From Chiloscyllium plagiosum (taxonomy: Eukaryota): 64,000 nt of DNA. The notes below the pieces were generated by a model. The model was not told the origin of the DNA. It was given only the letters and a program-made list of their open reading frames with translations, and ran no database searches. The first letter of the stretch is position 1. Each line of letters opens with the position of its first letter. Where the stretch lies: the NCBI RefSeq assembly GCF_004010195.1, contig NC_057759.1:4928657-4992656 (forward strand), given 5' to 3'. A program made the translations under genes and the position numbers. Positions 1-56,419 of the stretch are shown here, piece by piece.

Positions 1-44
1 GAGGCTGGATAAGCTCAGATGTTTTCTTTGGAGCAGAGGAACCT

Positions 45-325
45 TACTTCGGGCCAATACGTCCACACTGACCCTGTGAAGAGTAACCCACCTAGACACC
101 TATTACTCGACATTTACTCCAGACTAATGCGCTTAACCTACACATCCCTTAACACCATGGGCAAATTAGCATGGCCAATTCACTTAACCAGCACATCTTT
201 GGATTGTGGGAGGAAACCGTGGCACCCTCGCAGTACTGGGAGAATGTGCAAACTCCAATCAGACAATCACCCGGGTCCCTGGCACTTTGTGGCAGGAGTG
301 ATTACTACTGAGTGACCGTGCCACC
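45..325 (-). mobile_element. Degraded HE1-type SINE
   Basis: V-domain ggcaaattagcatggccaattcac...gaatgtgcaaactcc. Confidence 0.8.
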
Positions 326-1028
326 TGATAAAGAAGGGTAAGATTATAAAGCATACGTAGAGGGGGCAGAGGAAGCAGCTGTACCCTGTAGTTAAAAGGC
401 TCAATAACACGAGGGTGCATCATGCTAAAGTGAAAGGCAGGAGGTTTGGAGGGTGAGTTGAAGATTGCTTGACGCAGCTGGTGTGAACGGCCCAGCTTCG
501 ACAGCCCTTTGTGGTAATGAATTCCGTAGATTCACTGTGTACAGCGAGAATAAATTCCTCCTCATCTTTGTCTTTAATGGGCGACTCCCTCAATTTATGA
601 TGCTGCCCCTCTAGTCCCAGACTCTCCCAGACAAGGGGAAGTAACCTCTCTCTGCATCTCCCCTGTTAGGACCCCCTGAGAATTTTCAATAAGGTCGCCT
701 CTCATTTTTCTAAACTCTCATGAGTACAGACCTAACTTACTCAACCTCTCCTCATGCGAAATTGCCAACTCCTAGTTCAGATTCCTCACCTGACCTAAGT
801 GACTCATGTTGAAAGATGCATATTTGGCTGAAAGTGGTCTGAAAGATCAGGAACACCAAATCAATGCACACTCCACTTCCATGTCGAGTTTTCTAGGTAA
901 ATCATAGTCAAACTTGATTACAAAGCAATGTGATAGACCCTTAGCTGTCTTCTGGGACGGGCAATAAATACTAGCCTAGCCAGTGATGCCATCATCCTGT
1001 GAAGGAATGATGAAAAAAAACCACTTAC

Positions 1029-1274
1029 GAATAATGACAGTTACAGCAGGTGCTCTCATGAACCAAGGATAATGTCTTTTGCAGGAATAAGATCCACCAG
1101 TTTTACTGTTCACGAGTATTTCATAAATATTGGTCTGTGTCTTCTTGAATTGCGCTTCATTTTTGTACCAATAAAAAGTTCCTGCTTTATCTTTCCCACA
1201 TTCCAATTTTAAATTCTCTCCTTCTTTTACAAAACCACTTGTGGGGTATACGTGAAGCATAGGCTTTACAAAAG
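1029..1274 (-). CDS. Ig-like (C2-type) domain exon of FcR/FCRL-like receptor gene A; the gene continues beyond the left edge of the window
   Basis: On the minus strand: acceptor ctctctttctttAG, donor GTAAGT, 246 nt, phase 1-1, open. Translation (A)FVKPMLHVYPTSGFVKEGENLKLECGKDKAGTFYWYKNE...GGSYSCKRHYPWFMRAPAVTVII has the C, W and YxC Ig motifs with 38 residues between the two Cys. Confidence 0.9.
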
Positions 1275-1365
1275 CTAAAGAAAGAGAGAGAAAAGCAGGA
1301 AGGTTGAGAATCCAATCATTGCATTTATTGATCTCTCACCGCAGTAAACGCGGTGAAGTCTTGTT

Positions 1366-1719
1366 TTAGATTAGATTAGATTACTTACAGTGTGGAAACA
1401 GGCCCTTCGGCCTAACAAGTCCATACCGACCCACTGAAGCGCAACCCACCCAGACCCATTCCCCTGCATTTACCCCTTCACCTAACACTACGGGCAATTT
1501 AGCATGGCCAATTCAACTAACCTGCACATTGTTTTTTGGACCGTGGAAGGAAACCGGAGCACACGGTGGAAACCCACGCAGACATGCGGAGAATGTGCAA
1601 ACTCCACACAGTCAGTCGCCTGAGGCGGAAATTGAACCCAGGTCTCTGGCGCTGTGAGGCAGCAGTGCTAACCACTGTGCCACCGTGCCGCCCAAACCAT
1701 TGTGCCACCGTGCCGCCCA
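1366..1719 (-). mobile_element. HE1-type SINE with a duplicated 5' head
   Basis: Reverse complement of 18616-18928; extra gggcggcacggtggcaca at ~1701-1718. Confidence 0.9.
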
Positions 1720-2639
1720 CGGTGTTTCTGTGATGCCAACTATTTATCTTGCTATGTTTCACTTTCAAAGGACCATTCACTGACAGGCATCAGTAAATCT
1801 AATGTTCAGAAGAGTTAAGTGGACGGATTAACATAATGGAATCGAAGAATGCCTACAGGATAGAAACAGGCCATTTGGCACAACGAGTCCACATCAGGTT
1901 CTGAAGAGTATCCCACCCAGGCCCATTCATCTACCCTGTTACTCTAGAATATGCCAGCTCCACACACAGTCGCCTAACGCTGGAATCGAACGCAAATCCC
2001 TGGAGCTGCTGGAATCGAATGCGAATCCCTGGAGCTGTGAGGCAGCAGCCTAACCAGTGAGCCACCATGCTACCCCTTTATGTTTAGCCTTAATAGATGC
2101 AGGTTGATTACAATGTGAACACCTCTCAGCAATGCCAACACTTCAATCAAATCTCAACTCAACCTGCGAACATCAAAGAAGAAAACTCCCAATGATATTT
2201 TTTCTGTGTTTGGCAGCAGACCTCCCCCAACCATGGCAAAATGTTCCTCAATTTGCCAGGCAATGGTTATCTTCTCTTAGAGACAAACTAATTCTTGCCC
2301 TTTGACATTTAATAATGTTCCCATCACTGAAACCCCGCCATGTCAACATCCTGGTTATTCGTATGGACTATAAATTCAAGGGGACTTGCCATGTGGTTGC
2401 AAGAGCAGGGATGAGAATCCTGCAGAAAGTAACTCAACCCCTGATTCCCCACAAAGCCTGATCACCATGGAAAAGGCACAACTGAGGAGCGTGCTGGAGT
2501 ACTCTGCAGTTGCCAATAGATACAGATCCATCAATACTTGAGAAGCTCCATGCAATCTAGGGGCAAAGCAGCCCCTACTTGTTTGGCACACGTCCAAATA
2601 TCCACTCCCTCTATCACTGATGCTCAGTATACAATCATA

Positions 2640-3850
2640 CAGAATGGAAACAGATCCTTTTTTCCAAAATGCCCATGACATGCATAACCTCAAACTAACC
2701 TAGTAACTCCTACCTGCTCCTGACCCGTATCCCTCGAAACATTTCCTATTCACATATCCATCCAAATGTCTTTTAAAAATAATTGTACCCGCAACTACCA
2801 CTTCCTCAGGAAGATCTTTCCACACTCGAAGAATTCTCAGTGTAAAGCAATTGCCTCTTACTCACTTTTTAAATCTCTCTCCTGAACAATGCGGCCCCAA
2901 GTCTTTATTTGTGATCTCCATCTGGCATTTTCATTCCATTGACCCACCTGAACAAGATGCCTTTTGTAATCTTTTGAAACCTTCTTCACTGTCTTCTATG
3001 CCAACGATTAGCGTTATCCAAAAACATAATAACCATTTCTTCTGTATTCTCAACCAAATCATTTATATAAATGATAAACAAGAGGACCCAGCAGTATTTG
3101 CTGTGGAACACCACTGGTGACAGGCCTTCAGTCTGAAAAACAAATGTCTACCATGATACTCTGATCGCTGCCATAAAGCTGATTCTGCATCTAATTGGAA
3201 AGCTCACGCTGAATCCCATGTGATCTAACTTTATTAAGTAGTCTATCATGACGAAACTTGTCAAAGGCATTACTGAAATCCAAGAAAACAACGTCTCCTG
3301 CAATGACATCATCAACCTTTTTGATACCTTCCTCAAAAAAACTCAATCTCGATTGTGGCGACTTTTCTCAAACAAAAACCATACTGAGTACCTCTAATCA
3401 TTTTTCCTCTCTCTCTAAATGATCACAAATTATATATTTTATAATCATCTCCAACATCTTACCCACAACCGAAGTCAGACTCAGAAGTCTATAGATCCTG
3501 GGTTCTTCTTGCAAACTTTCTAAAATAAACGTATAACCTTCGCCACATTCCATTCATCAGGCACCTGACCCATCGTTAGGCTAATATTTCTGGGAGAGGT
3601 CTCGTAATTATCTTCCTTACTTCCCACAATATTCATTCAATCAAGTTCGGGAGATTTTTCCAGCTTTATATTCTCTAAGACTTCCCGAACTTCCTTTTCT
3701 GTGATGTGAACTGTTTTTGAATCATCAGTGTATTTCTCTGCATTCTTTAGATTTTAATTAATTCTCCACAGCAAAACCGACTCAAAATATTCACTCGGCA
3801 TTTCTCCCATCTCCTGGTGATCAACACAAAGACAAACTCCTTTGTGTTTA
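2640..3850 (-). mobile_element. CR1-clade LINE fragments
   Basis: Reverse-complement similarity to the RT region and tail of 29404-32710. Confidence 0.7.
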
Positions 3851-5603
3851 CGAGTAGCAGCAGTATTTGCAATCTATAACAAGCAATGCAGAAATTCATC
3901 ATAGATCCTCAAACACCACCTCCCAAACTCATGAGCATTTCCATTTAGTCGGACAAGGGCAGCAGGTACACGGAATGACCACCCCTTACATGTTCCCTTC
4001 CGAGCCATTCACCATCCCAACTTGGAATGATTTGGCTGTTTCGTAAGTGCCACTGTGTCAAAATCCGGGAACTCACCACAACCCCCCCCCCCCCACCACA
4101 CACCAAAACTAAGGTCATTTTATGTCTACCTGCAGCACAGACACTGCAGTGTTTCAAGAAGGCTGCTCACTACCACCTTCTCAAGGTGACAACAAGGGTC
4201 AGAGAGAATAAATTCTGGACTTTTTCAGAGATGCCTATTCTCAAGAATCAATTGAATGTTAAACGTCATTTACCTGCCCACTCTAGTCTATCCAAATTCC
4301 CCTCTCATCCTCCTTCTCTCTCCTTCTTGTCTGCTGTATTCCTAAGTGTGCTGCTCTCTTATTATGGAAATTCAGCCTAGAACTGAAGTTAATGCCCATT
4401 AACATTTATTATAACTGATATAGCTTGTTCTGATCTGTGCAAGTTTCCATTTAATGCCCAATGGAATGTCAAAAAACGAGGCAGTAACGGCCATTTTCCA
4501 CATTGTTGTTCTCAAGTATATTGCAGCAATGCCCACTGCCATTGTCTGTCAGGGCCATCACCTTGATTGTTGCTTGTGAATCTGTAATGTGGCACTTAAC
4601 CTTTAACTTTCCAAATTTTTGAAAATGAATTCTGTGTATCAATTCCATTAAAACCTTCATTTATTGTCTGATCAGTGTTATCTGTCAGTTCATCTATCAT
4701 TGACCCTGCCTTCATACTCACATTTAATGCCATACAGATACAAGTAGGCCATTCTGTCCGTCAACCCTGCTCCATCATCCAGTTAGATTCTGGCTGATCT
4801 AACATTCCTCACATCCACATTCCTGCCCCTTCCCTAGATTCCCTGAATGATCAAGGATCTATCTGTCTCAGCCTTCAACATACAGAAGGACTCTACCCCC
4901 ACCACCTTCCCCACCCCTCCCCTCACGGCTCTCTGTGACAAGGAGTTCCAAGACTCACAACCGTCTAAGAGCAGAAATTCCTCCCCCATTCAGTCTTCAA
5001 CAAGTTCCCTTTTATTCTGAGACTGCCCTCCAGTCCGACACTCTCCTATGAGGGGAAACATCATCTCAGTATTAACACTGCTAATACAGTAGAGCTGTTC
5101 AGCTTTGCACACAGGACAATCCCTCTATAACAGAGATCATCACAGTGAAATTTATCTGAACTGCCTCCAATGAATGTTCTCGTTCCCCAAAGAAAGGAAG
5201 CAAATCTGTCGCAGTGCTCCAGATGTGATTTCCCCAGCAACATTTACAGTTGCAGTAAGATTTCCCTATTCTTATACTCCAACCTATTGAAATAAGAATC
5301 TGCATTCCCTCTCCCTATCTGATTAAACTGTGCGTGAGCTTTCTGTGTTTCAAGCATACGTTCCAACAAAAACATCCCCTCCACACCAAATCCCTTTTCT
5401 GTTGCAGCTCTCTGCATTTTATCTCCATTTAATTAATACACTGATCTTCTGTTCCCCTTTCCAAAATGATCACAAGTCCGGACTAGAAAGACTGGGATAC
5501 AATCCCATTTGTTGCATGCTTGGGAAAGATCGCTGAAAAGCTATGCACAGCACGACTTCAGGTTTCCAATCGATTAATGAAGGAATTTGCAGTTTATTCC
5601 TAC

Positions 5604-5633
5604 CTAGGGTGCTCCCACGGAAAATAAGATTCC
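5604..5633 (-). CDS. 30-nt leader mini-exon (S2) of gene A
   Basis: ccccttctgttttccAG|GG AAT CTT ATT TTC CGT GGG AGC ACC CTA G|GTAGGA; phase 1-1; joins in frame to give MSQMSVLLILWNLIFRGSTLA-FVKP. Confidence 0.8.
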   Translation of the reverse strand, partial: GILFSVGAP

Positions 5634-7094
5634 CTGGAAAACAGAAGGGGATTGAAACACAAACGTCATTATTTCTGTCAGTGTCCTGGAAACGATAAAG
5701 CAAACATAATGTCAAAGCAATATACGTAGAAAAGCAGCAGAGAAACATCACATGTCTTTTCTATAACTCAATGGGAACAGTTAACTGTTCAGTTCCATTG
5801 AAATGGAGGCAGAAATGTGAATTTATATGAATTGCAAAATGACTCCATTGGTTTTTCATACTGGTCTCATAATAGCAGCAAACTTTGCTTTATACCATTC
5901 CGTCCTTTATTTGTCCTCTCATTTTTCCTCCTGTTTTCTCTCTGCTCAGTTTCCCATTTCATTCTTCTTAAACTAGTAAAGGACCCCATAATTTTAGGTT
6001 TTAAAAAATAAATTATGTTTGGGAAGATGATTGAAAAAAAAATCTATTTCAGATGATTTTGCGTTTCTTGCCTTGGAGAGATTCTGAGAAACCTACAAAA
6101 GTCAGCCAGGACCTATCAATGATCTCCACACTGAGGTTTCTAGCTCAGAAACAAGAGGCGGCAGCGACAACAGGGCTGTTCTCGGTGCATCTCTAAATAA
6201 TTTTGAGATACTTCCACAAATTCAGTTGTGTTTAAACTAATTTCATAAGAGATGTACGACCATCTTTTATCCAGGTTCAGAACTAGAGAGGTCTACAGCA
6301 CAGGAAATTAACTTTCTGCCCAATGACTCTGTGCCGTTAAAAAAAGAAAATCACCTGAGTATTCTCTAATCCCATTTTTCCAGTATTTGTCACGTAGTCT
6401 TGGCATCCTTGTCTTTGTCTGAGACCACATCTGCATTTCCTGCTCCTTACCTTCAGTCTGTGCACCCCGTCCGACTTACCGCCATTATTGATCCCACCAT
6501 CAAGGGGGAAATGATTTTTCCAGTCTACCCTCTCTATCCGCCTCATAATTTTATATATCTCAATCATGTCCCCCCCCCCGCCACTTTTCAAACTCCTCTG
6601 CACTCAGAAAAACAATCTCTCTCCATCTCTGAAACTCTTCAGCTCTGAAGGCTAAATCTCTTATTATTGATGAATAGTAATGGCATTTCCATTCACTACT
6701 CAGTGAGATATCTCGACCCTACATTGTGGCAGATTGTCCTTCCCTTTGCGGAATTCTGAAATTCTCCTGATATTTTTTGACCAATGTGCACACGTGTGTG
6801 TAACTTGCATTCTTTTCAAAGAAGACCGAATAGTTTTACACAAAGGAACTGACATGCTCATTCTTTTCTCTCTACCTCTCTCTGCCGAGAAATGCTATCA
6901 TCTAAGCACCTAATTCCTTTCATTCCTGATTTCCGCCAAGCTTGGTTGATATGTTGGCCACAATGATCAATTTCGGCTTTCCGGGAACAGAAATGGAAGT
7001 GTGTGGTTATCTGCTGCAGAATGTAACCTCGCGTGACGGGGGAACAGAGCAAGTTTTTTTTTCGGAACAAGGTTCCTCTTTAACACACACTTAC

Positions 7095-7125
7095 AGAGGA
7101 TCAGAAGCACAGACATCTGCGACAT
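7095..7125 (-). CDS. First coding segment (S1, signal peptide) of gene A, within exon 7095-7212
   Basis: ATG TCG CAG ATG TCT GTG CTT CTG ATC CTC T|GTAAGT (31 nt, phase 1). Exon acceptor cttctcttacAG at 7213-7214. An in-frame TGA upstream supports this ATG as the start. Confidence 0.8.
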
Positions 7126-8045
7126 TTCCGATGCGGTTTTGTAGCACAGCAATTTCCAATTCAATGTGACCTGGTGCCTGCTACATCAATGCCTTCCCTC
7201 TGTCACATTTACCTGTAAGAGAAGACGCTAAATTCAGAAACAGCAAAAGGAAGCTGTTCGCTCCATACTGTGCTCGCATTTCCACTTAATTAGTTCCTTT
7301 CACAGGAACAGCAATAGACCAATCAGCCTCCCGAGCCTGTTTTGCCATTCAATGGTTGATCTGTTGCCTAGCTCTATATAACTGCCTTTGACTCCTACCT
7401 CCTTAATATCGTTGCTAAACAAACATTGATCCATCTCGGATTGAAAACTAACAACTGATACAGTAACCACTGCCGTTTGTGGAAGAGAGTTCCAAATCGC
7501 TCCCTCCCTTTGTGAACATTTGTTCTGAACATTTATCCTCCATGGTCCTGTCCTAAGTCTCAAACGATGCCCTCCCCATTTTTCCCAAACAGTGGAAATA
7601 ATTTCTCCTTATCCATCCTACCTTTGCCTGTCAAAACGTTCGATCAGTTCACCCCTTAACCGTCTAAATTCTGGAAAAAAGCAGGTCTTATTTGTGTGAT
7701 CACTCCTCAGAATTTAGTCCAGGTCGCCTTCTTGCCAACCTACGTTGTACTCTGTCCTTCCTAGCACTGAGTTTGAGACAGCACTGCTCCCATTAGAACA
7801 GAAAAATAAGTTGTTTTGGAGAAACTCAGCTGGTCTGACCGCATGTGTGCAGAGATAGAGAGAGAAAAAAACAGAGTTAATGTTGCAGGTTATAAACACA
7901 GAAAGTAATGGAGAAACTCAGCAGGTCCGACAGCATCTGTGTAGACTAAGAACAGGGATGGGCTAAACGCAGGCAAATGAACATAGTTCAGTTTGGGACA
8001 CCTGGTTGGGATGGATTAGCTGGGGTGAAGGACCTGTTTCCTTAC

Positions 8046-54435: not shown

Positions 54436-54710
54436 GTTCCTCAGTGGAGACTGGAACACCCTTGCTAACGATGGAGCCAATGTGGGAGAGATTCTTAACG
54501 GGAGACCAGATCACTCTTAGCTGCGATGCTGGTCGAAAGCTTCATTCAAAGGATATAACTGGATCGTAAACAACATTACCAAAGAGTTCAGAAGGAAGAC
54601 GTACAACATTGACGCTGCTGAAAAGGATCATGATGGGGACTACAGTTGTCAAACTTCCACATTGACACGCATGACGGCCTACAGTAACAATATTCTCGTG
54701 AGAGTATCCT
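54436..54710 (+). pseudogene. Ig domain 1 exon of gene B, frameshifted
   Basis: Acceptor ttttctatgcattAG, donor GTGAGT; 275 nt, not a multiple of 3. The first frame reads PLLTMEPMWERFLTGDQITLSCDAG. After a shift near 54535-54548 it reads GYNWIVNNITKEFRRKTYNIDAAEKDHDGDYSCQTSTLTRMTAYSNNILVRVS. Confidence 0.85.
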
Positions 54711-56419
54711 GTGAGTCACGTCCTTCTTAGAAAAATCAACGCCTTTCTCTCAAGTTGCATCCATACAGACATTTGAGGGGTTAAAAACAACTCCCAGGGA
54801 TAGACGGATGTGGGAAAAGTGAGAATATTGGCTTTCTCTTGGAATAGCACCAGCGCAGCTGTGATGCACAAATGTTCATTGCTCTTCACTGCTTCGATAG
54901 ATGATGCTCTCCACCCATCTTGTCTGCACTAAACCTCTTCAATCATTTCTTGGGCATCGTTGCCATGTTCGAAACCATGTGCCCTTCGGCTGAGCAGTTG
55001 GCCCACTCAAGAGTTGGTTTAAATGGGATCCAGAAGGGCTAAGACAGGCAGGAATCTGATGACGAGGGGAGCCGATAGATTTAATAGGTATCTCCGAGGT
55101 TCAACATCCAGATCTCATTCCGACTGGATCAGTTACTTAGCAGCTCCCATGGGGGGGCGGGGATTTGAATCCACCCTTGTGGACTATCCGCCTGGTCTGC
55201 TTGTTTGCTAGTCTATGACATAACCTGCACAGATGACCCTTCACTTGCTGGGTGGTATTTCATATATTTCTTCACATATAGGCGACTGAGATGGATGATG
55301 TCATTGAACGACAGAACAATCTCAAGCTTCCAAGTGGCCTGCTCCTGTTCCTTTTTTTCTATGATTCTATCCTCCTCAGCCAACACTTCAGCGTTCTACT
55401 TAACTGGCTCCTTCTTTCCATTTTTGTCTTTTCGATATTATGATTCGTTAACGAGTCTAATTTTGCAATTAAGTGGCCATGAATGCGTTTTGATAATTAG
55501 TTCACACCTGAAAGAATTTTAAGTTTCGAAATTAAACTGCCCTGGTTTGAAGGCTTCACAAATTAAATGAAACCAAAGGAAAACACTGTCAGTGCACTCA
55601 GGGTGAAAAATCTGAACTGAAACTATCTCTTGATAAGAAAAAAGAAGTTCCCGTTTTAAATCAAGCTCTTGGTTATTTCTGAACTTAAGGCAAAACAAAA
55701 CCTGTTGTTTAATATTTGTACAGTGCCTGGTTTGGACTGAAAAGTGTCATTCTCCATTGTAGCCCTAGTGCTGAAGGTTTTCATACCAGTATTCTTTCCT
55801 GTAAACTGCTCCTGAACTCCCCTTTCAATTCTTTTCCTAAAATGTGACGCCCACAACTGTACACAACTGAGCTCTAACAAGTAGGAGAAAGTGCGGATGG
55901 CCTTTTGACTGAAATGATGATTCTCCTGTCCTCAGATGCTACCTTTCCTGCTATGCTTTTCCATGACCACACTCTCGACTGATGTCTAACAAGTGTCTTG
56001 TACATGTTCAACATCGCCTTCCTCTTCTCAGACTCTACAACCCATTAAGAAAGCCAAATGCATCATGTGGTTAATTAACGTGCTCTCCCCCTGTCCTGTC
56101 ACCTTCACTGATCTGTGCACATATCCTCCAACTCCTTCTGCTCTGCACCCTTATGATAATGGTGTCTTTCAATATTCTTCCCACAAACGTGTGTTACCGC
56201 TTTGTAGTGAACTCCTCTGCCCACTCTACCAACTCATCAATGCCCTATCGGATTTCTGCACCATTCTCCTTATAATTCACAATGTTTGTCGGGGGAGGTT
56301 CTACCATTTGAAAACCTGGAAATAACCCCCCTGCATAGAAAGATCCAGATCATTTTTCATATCAAGAAAAGCAATGCGCTCAGTACCCCTACTACAAAAC
56401 TCCCTCTGGTCTTGAAAAG

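Follow-up and report, generated by a model that had tools for sequence, protein, structure and literature searches.

In mammals, FCRL proteins and FcgRIIB carry inhibitory motifs of the immunoreceptor tyrosine-based kind (ITIMs) that are phosphorylated by Src-family kinases and recruit SHP-1/SHP-2 or SHIP, thereby damping signalling. In cartilaginous fish, two fcrl genes have reportedly been described in elephant shark, in a 2021 Immunogenetics paper. Here we analyse a gene of the shark Chiloscyllium plagiosum whose first three exons lie in a window of 64,000 nucleotides (contig NC_057759.1, called C50 below, positions 4928657-4992656) and whose product, XP_043539691.1, is named 'PECAM-like' in RefSeq. 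We conclude that it is probably an intact, expressed FCRL-type inhibitory receptor that RefSeq has misnamed; judged by sequence, membership of the FcR/FCRL family in its broad sense is likely.

A 2014 survey did not find FcRL or LRC (leukocyte receptor complex) homologs in shark genomes (PMC4016189), and a 2026 review likewise holds that cartilaginous fish have no FcRL genes and raises the question of how sharks cope in the absence of Fc receptors (PMC13337447). A 2024 single-cell paper lists fcgr1a-like, fcrl3 and fcrl5 in B cells of C. plagiosum, by annotation only (PMC11372145). The terms 'FCRL', 'Fc receptor' and 'chromosome 50' were not found in the main text of the genome paper (PMC7677710), and PMC6557307 added nothing on a shark FCRL family. 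A family analysis of FcR/FCRL genes in sharks was not found in the literature searched, which left most subscription papers beyond its reach. The original prediction, a reading of the DNA letters, had called the family poorly documented in this lineage. The two reviews deny it to sharks, but RefSeq and the 2024 paper list shark fcrl genes. Because models of this kind already carry RefSeq names in many sharks and rays and the 2024 paper places such genes in B cells, the surprise is limited; what is distinctive here is a shark-specific first domain together with a leader split into 31 and 30 nt.

Among the closest known systems are the FCRLs of other vertebrates. Those of amphibians, turtle, coelacanth and paddlefish (Xenopus XFL, PMC2413239) have the D2-D3-(D3)-D4/D5 domain order of the shark gene, and they share with it a membrane-proximal extra domain (95/87 in the tree described below), a two-exon leader, phase-1 exons and local expansion. 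The shark gene differs from these FCRLs in having an extra first immunoglobulin (Ig) domain, which we call D0, and in that no activating NxxR partner was found among the 18 members checked. Like human FCRL5, FCRL3, FCRL4 and FcgRI, it has colinear D1-D2-D3 domains followed by D5-like domains and an ITIM tail, and cluster members, matched by RefSeq description, are expressed in B cells. Unlike mammalian FCRLs, to which its identity is about 27%, it has a second leader exon (S2) of 30 rather than 21 nt, keeps few of the IgG contact residues and possesses D0 and D6-type domains that mammals do not have. It is no one-to-one ortholog, and we do not file it as an ortholog of any mammalian FCRL1-6 or FCGR1 member. 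PECAM1 (CD31) is likewise a multi-C2 ITIM receptor with D3- and D5-like domains, but is without the D2 and D6 types and has a shark candidate of its own on another contig, C24.

Elasmobranch RefSeq models named 'Fc receptor-like protein 1/2/3/5' and 'PECAM-like', names that were assigned automatically, belong to the same family and have the same uncharged helix, ITIM tail and leader of about 20 residues. Relatives occur in Scyliorhinus, Heptranchias, Heterodontus, Carcharodon, Cetorhinus, Mustelus, Hemitrygon and Narcine, and D0 is present in the models of several species; the ortholog in Chiloscyllium punctatum, XP_072422996.1, is named 'Fc receptor-like protein 5'. Compared with these models, the copy described here stands out by its eight domains, with a D3 exon and a 60-nt ITIM exon each present twice.

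Gene structure and expression

We mapped XP_043539691.1 (P0006) onto the window and 100 kb added to its left. Coordinates are window positions, except that those preceded by C50 or another contig handle are contig positions. All of the following features lie on the minus strand.

7095..7125, minus: coding part of exon 1 (S1), from the ATG, 31 nt of signal peptide; the 5' untranslated region runs past 7125
5634..7094, minus: intron 1, 1461 nt, GT-AG, phase 1 (exon mapping of the RefSeq model)
5604..5633, minus: exon 2 (S2), mini-exon of 30 nt for the signal peptide's second half (exon mapping, contigs X2 and X7)
1275..5603, minus: intron 2, 4329 nt, GT-AG, phase 1 (exon mapping)
1029..1274, minus: exon 3, 246 nt, N-terminal short C2-type Ig domain D0 (mapping, profile, tree, fold model)
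1..1028, minus: intron 3, 1253 nt, leaving the window at its left (exon mapping)
C50 4928431-4928165, minus: D1-like Ig exon, beyond the window
C50 4917979-4917722, minus: D2 Ig exon, beyond the window
C50 4915000-4914719, minus: D3 Ig exon, beyond the window
C50 4907846-4907568, minus: duplicate D3 Ig exon, beyond the window
C50 4906789-4906517, minus: D3-type Ig exon, beyond the window
C50 4904006-4903722, minus: D4/D5-like Ig exon, beyond the window
C50 4902791-4902489, minus: D6-type Ig exon, beyond the window
C50 4901197-4901099, minus: membrane exon, beyond the window
C50 4900105-4892347, minus: six tail exons, beyond the window

The whole gene comprises 17 exons across 43 kb, 36 kb of them left of the window, and contains no premature stop. 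All 16 introns are GT-AG, and the spliced frame gives the 910-aa protein XP_043539691.1, stop included. Each of the eight Ig exons is phase 1/1 and encodes one C2-type domain; relative to the intact paralogs mapped on C50, the gene has gained a second copy of one D3 exon and of one 60-nt ITIM exon. The layout of exon 2 recurs in paralogs P0017 and P0020. Thus the three in-frame exons with canonical splice sites that had been proposed, phase 1 and in the RefSeq frame, are real, as is the leader split into 31 coding nt and a 30-nt mini-exon, and the suggested leftward extension into Ig, transmembrane and tail exons yielded 14 more exons on C50. The end point given for the gene, 7212, is not coding; the ATG is at 7125, and the donor GT follows directly after 7095.

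Read-level data span window positions 900-1420, with contigs from three runs (X2, X6 and X7). In X2 and X7, which come from two studies, one contig each spans exactly 1029-1277 with zero mismatches, and its loose end runs into exon 2 and then into three letters that match the end of exon 1 and not the intron. The X6 contig spans 963-1391 unspliced, like genomic DNA. A single-cell run, X8, sampled at about 2 in 100, put no depth on exon 3, which carries no weight as evidence. The X2 and X7 contigs therefore show the junction 5604^1274, one of two that the original prediction had singled out for checking, whereas the other, 7095^5633, is less firmly seen, in three contig letters and otherwise in the RefSeq models. 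The sister-species ortholog model (P0012) has the same leader, with 19 of 21 residues identical. Exon 3 is not a chance reading frame, given a match of its domain to Pfam Ig_3 (E 1.7e-5, under the family cut-off), eight DNA matches genome-wide, seven of them on C50, and a domain fold model with a predicted local distance difference test score (pLDDT) of 86.7. We conclude that the gene is intact, spliced and expressed.

RefSeq holds nine C. plagiosum isoforms, among which P0006 alone uses exactly the three window exons; P0011 omits the mini-exon, P0007 exon 3 and P0010 the membrane exon. Six isoforms start at alternative exons in intron 2 (coding 3553-3464 and 3062-2949, minus strand). These yield no convincing signal peptide and lie in sequence that resembles a remnant of a long interspersed nuclear element.

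Protein architecture

The leader, assessed by hydropathy and by the residues at -3 and -1, has 21 residues, a hydrophobic core and small residues at both positions. Split leaders also occur in LILR, KIR, FCAR and PECAM1, although the literature searched gave no support on this point. Given those other families, and a 21-nt mini-exon that is kept in only a fraction of Xenopus genes (PMC2413239), the split leader is non-diagnostic. It had been put forward as typical of the family, and its split layout does fit, while its second exon has 30 nt against the mammalian 21; that a 21-nt mini-exon proves membership is an argument we rejected.

Eight C2-type Ig domains follow the leader in the order D0, D1-like, D2, D3, D3, D3-type, D4/D5-like and D6-type. 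Their Cys spacings are 39-50 (39 in D0), and an N-terminal V-set domain was not found among the eight, as judged by these spacings and by the short C2 fold of D0. The membrane helix is uncharged, and the tail carries four consensus ITIMs (LEYAVV, LVYSEV twice and ITYAKL) and a terminal YxN tyrosine. The activating helix of classical Fc receptors, (M/L)Fxx(D/N)TxL, was not found, and the eight Ig domains compare with two or three in those receptors; a classical Fc receptor (FcgR, FceRI) was rejected on these two counts. In a set of 18 elasmobranch members, collected with a query biased to inhibitory forms, all 18 have an uncharged core without NxxR and 17 have an ITIM.

Family placement

Domains were placed by a tree of 78 of 157 domain rows over 95 columns, from which one mis-cut LITR row was dropped and which was built without mammalian or bird LILR/KIR/CHIR, CEACAM, or mammalian PECAM1 rows. 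Profiles were built from bony-vertebrate domains, and an earlier 153-row tree was a quick search only.

When the protein was searched against the PDB, FCRL5 (E 2e-71), five FcgRI entries (best 6e-22) and FCRL4 made up the first 7 of 18 rows. Residues 112-370 match D1-D3 of FcgRI as a single colinear stretch (E 6e-22). Neither PECAM-1 nor LILR, KIR, CHIR or OSCAR was found among these 18 rows at 1e-12. As a control, a catfish PECAM-type protein matched PECAM-1 D1-D2 at 4e-16 and gave no FcgRI in 7 rows at 1e-4. This is the reverse of the pattern in the shark gene.

In the tree, domain 3 joins the D2 domains of paddlefish, LITR, caecilian, turtle and mammals in one clade (98/99). Domain 8 falls with the domain that lies next to the membrane in FCRLs from paddlefish, coelacanth, caecilian, frog and turtle (95/87); PECAM, CD22 and LRC-type rows are absent from both clades. 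Judging by its position, this shared domain would be the 'Xenopus-specific D6' of PMC2413239. Profiles identify domains 4-6 as D3 (58-68 bits, against no more than 42 for the runner-up), make domain 8 a D6 (69 bits, runner-up 42), tie domain 7 between D4 and D5 at 46 and leave domains 1-3 ambiguous. Altogether, tree or profile assigns six of the eight domains to an FCRL subtype. In a full-length fold model of low confidence (pLDDT 58), FcgRI had the best target TM-score among the matches listed (0.67; non-FcR structures at most 0.31). The proposal that this is a shark relative of FcR/FCRL is thus supported by the FcgRI stretch and by the D2 and D6 clades, all of them outside the window.

Several observations weigh against this placement. 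The top match to FCRL5 is non-diagnostic, since the catfish PECAM-type protein and an exon on C24 also rank FCRL5 first, and the PECAM-1 PDB entries matched by those two cover D1-D2 only. Domain 2 aligns to FcgRI D1 yet falls outside bony D1 in trees, and it draws the long-branched second domains of shark LRC-type genes (92/99). The tree, whose bootstrap had not settled on 95 columns, leaves D3- and D5-type domains unseparated from PECAM1 domains, and the PECAM profiles are shallow, built from 1-2 sequences. By whole-ectodomain BLAST, a fish CD22-type repeat protein scores 187 bits against 208 for caecilian FCRL3. With Foldseek, the leading match by E-value is PirB for the full model, which is of low confidence, and the leading match for D0 is CD22.

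The first domain

D0, the one Ig domain of the gene that lies in the window, clusters with catshark, Heptranchias and Mustelus domains (100/99) in an elasmobranch-only clade with no placed sister, and its profile scores for D1, D2 and LITR do not separate (29, 27 and 29 bits). A profile of eight paralogous D0 copies, run against vertebrate proteins, matched FCRL5 (2e-11), CEA (1e-10) and many FcR D1/D2 domains; LILR, KIR, CHIR and OSCAR were absent from its best 60 matches. The D0 fold model matches CD22, FcgR, OSCAR and KIR at similar E-values, with the lowest root-mean-square deviations (1.8-2.5) for Fc receptors. Exon 3 alone was uninformative against the PDB, where phage Ig-like proteins and CEA lead and FceRI has E 0.3, and an ESM Atlas search yielded Ig clusters of a generic kind, in which fragments of FCRL2 (rank 3) and FCGR3 (rank 6) are a lead only.

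The reading we favour for D0 is an offshoot, within elasmobranchs, of the short D1/D2 type. It is the least diagnostic of the eight domains and cannot be typed, as the original prediction had allowed in saying that a single domain would not settle identity. The domain phylogeny that it had proposed gave a divided answer, with D0 confined to elasmobranchs and the D2 and D6 domains grouping with bony FCRLs. The D0 clade is unplaced and the profiles are tied; the family evidence comes from exons outside the window.

Proposed function and ligand

By its anatomy, the product is a type I membrane receptor, and it likely serves as an inhibitory co-receptor on B cells. Once its ectodomain is brought together with the antigen receptor in one cluster, the ITIMs would become targets of Src-family kinases and, when phosphorylated, would recruit SHP-1/SHP-2 or SHIP and damp antigen-receptor signalling; the receptor would work without the FcR-gamma adaptor. 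Expression data come from the supplement of the 2024 single-cell paper (PMC11372145), in which LOC122544513 ('PECAM-like isoform X5') and LOC122544517, whose description is that of paralog P0022, are B-cell markers (43-48% versus 3-4% of cells). Two points count against this part of the proposal: the marker ids were matched to the cluster by RefSeq description and not to this copy, and both inhibitory signalling and ligand binding are predictions from anatomy.

A ligand is predicted to meet the outer domains, D0 to D2, whose divergence among paralogs is the fastest. The pooled ratio of nonsynonymous to synonymous substitution (dN/dS, 4-5 paralogs) is 0.80 for D0, 0.87 for D2, 0.58 for the D1-like domain and 0.35-0.48 for the inner domains, and identity to the ortholog is lowest in D0 (69/81), D2 (69/85) and the tail (101/125). 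This fast divergence of D0 and D2 suggests a variable ligand and is no proof of positive selection; it counts against the proposal that dN/dS never exceeds 1 and that the paralog pairs are not independent. We lean towards a variable non-Ig ligand, either MHC-like (of the major histocompatibility complex type) or a microbial surface, as likelier than shark IgM, IgW or IgNAR.

A true antibody receptor, as the original prediction suggested for IgM, IgW or IgNAR, would differ in ligand only: it would recognise polymeric shark IgM, IgW or IgNAR and provide inhibitory B-cell feedback through D1-D3, as human FCRL5 or FcgRIIB do for IgG. The colinear FcgRI-like D1-D2-D3 module, a model geometry near FcgRI and the B-cell expression of cluster members are consistent with it, as is human FCRL5, which binds IgG via D1-D3; in the same source, however, IgG-Fc binding was confined to one of six human FCRLs, and mouse FCRL5 failed to bind either IgG or IgM (PMC12757038). 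Of 15 FCRL5 IgG-contact residues checked by eye in an alignment of the sister-species ortholog, 3 are kept, and the XFLs of Xenopus likewise do not conserve the Fc contacts (PMC2413239). Two further points against it are the rapid divergence of the outer domains and the additional domain that sits on top of D1. Nothing here favours Ig binding specifically. We therefore regard an antibody ligand as unlikely, though with a real chance of proving right.

Genomic surroundings and alternative origins

A D3 search of the genome gave 22 matches; 20 of these fall on C50, where they make up 11 sites from 1.0 to 7.1 Mb. Ten C50 blocks were mapped and hold intact and broken copies of two subfamilies; of ten representatives looked up, nine are models from sharks or rays that bear an Fc receptor-like name, and the tenth is a toad protein. 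The second FCRL-type subfamily has an open-looking member at C50 2516400-2526100 and a broken copy at C50 4872600-4875700 (minus strand), 17 kb past the end of the gene. At C50 2898960-2899187, unrelated retroelement-like sequence has taken the place of the front part of a D6-type exon, in a broken paralog. A zebra shark model (P0014) has its D1-D2-D3 block repeated with D0 in the middle, an exon-block duplication within the family. Apart from exon 3, a single Ig-like trace was found in the window: an exon remnant at 54436-54712 (plus strand), with a frameshift and a stop, that is weakly like tetrapod FCRL D1 (E 0.009).

Synteny gave a mixed picture. Searches with six marker families (Vangl, ARHGEF RGS-like, nicastrin, COPA, ETS and PIGM) gave no match on C50, which counts against our placement without deciding the matter. 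Nicastrin is on C88014, COPA on C84483, ARHGEF-type exons on C35, C92330 and C95628, and Vangl, in a strict search, only on C12; none of 36 ETS matches is on C50, and PIGM, on C29, is multi-exon and probably uninformative. FCER1G was not located in a zeta/gamma-chain search of the genome, which gave one C12 exon and one noise match. Linker-histone matches are concentrated on C50 (19 of 37 in the genome, spread over 0.1-6.7 Mb), and human FCGR1A adjoins a histone cluster, which therefore lends weak synteny support.

Among the FCRL-type genes of C50, at 0.87 and 3.72 Mb, stand Ig exons whose best receptor matches are weakly to CHIR-AB1, OSCAR and PirB (E 0.002-0.007):

C50 3720870-3725240 and 872970-875950: two-domain LRC-type receptor exons amid FCRL-type genes

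That the gene is the first cartilaginous-fish antibody receptor, a brake on B cells that recognises polymeric IgM or IgNAR, on a contig keeping an ancestral interleaved FcR/LILR-KIR cluster that was later split onto different chromosomes in bony vertebrates, we consider distinctly doubtful.

Siglecs and CEACAMs need an N-terminal V-set domain. It is improbable that the gene is not FCRL proper and is instead a mosaic from before the FcR/LRC split, or a LITR-, CD22/Siglec- or CEACAM-type receptor. Such an origin would accommodate the LRC-type exons on the same contig (CHIR-AB1 E 0.0018; OSCAR and PirB E 0.003-0.007, ranking under titin), the attraction of domain 2 to LRC-type domains in the tree, and a D0 that matches CEA nearly as well as FCRL5 (1e-10 versus 2e-11), but six of the eight domains are typed as FCRL subtypes. 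A Siglec/CD22 or CEACAM identity was rejected for want of an N-terminal V-set domain, with Cys spacings of 39-50; an LRC receptor (LILR, KIR, CHIR) for want of any such PDB row at 1e-12 or among the best 60 for D0; and a teleost LITR because the gene has three D3-type domains and LITRs lack the D3-D5 types (PMC2413239).

Weakest is an origin by expansion of PECAM1 in sharks, or as a separate branch from a common PECAM1/FCRL ancestor, giving an ITIM-bearing adhesion receptor: the RefSeq name 'PECAM-like' and the D3-like D1 and D5-like inner domains of PECAM1 in trees favour it, but we hold it very improbable, and reject a PECAM1 ortholog, because PECAM rows stay outside the D2 and D6 clades, PECAM-1 is not matched at 1e-12, and a six-Ig gene on C24 is a separate and far better PECAM1 candidate, matching catfish PECAM-type D1 at 1.8e-9 (versus 1e-3 on C50) and having PECAM-1 D1 as the best single-stretch match of its first exon. 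PECAM1 itself has ITIMs and a split leader. At the C24 candidate (C24 47999645-48096400), a near-identical copy of the first three exons lies 60 kb upstream, and the single-cell tables contain, for T/B cells and erythrocytes, a pair of PECAM-like ids whose numbers are adjacent.

Implications

As an FCRL-type inhibitory receptor, the gene contradicts the reviews' statement that sharks have no FcRL, and it gives an ectodomain to try against IgM, IgW, IgNAR and MHC. Its position amid LILR/CHIR-type genes is relevant to the proposal that the FcR and LRC families share an origin. An intact, ITIM-bearing shark member with shared D2 and D6 types would date the family to the jawed-vertebrate ancestor.

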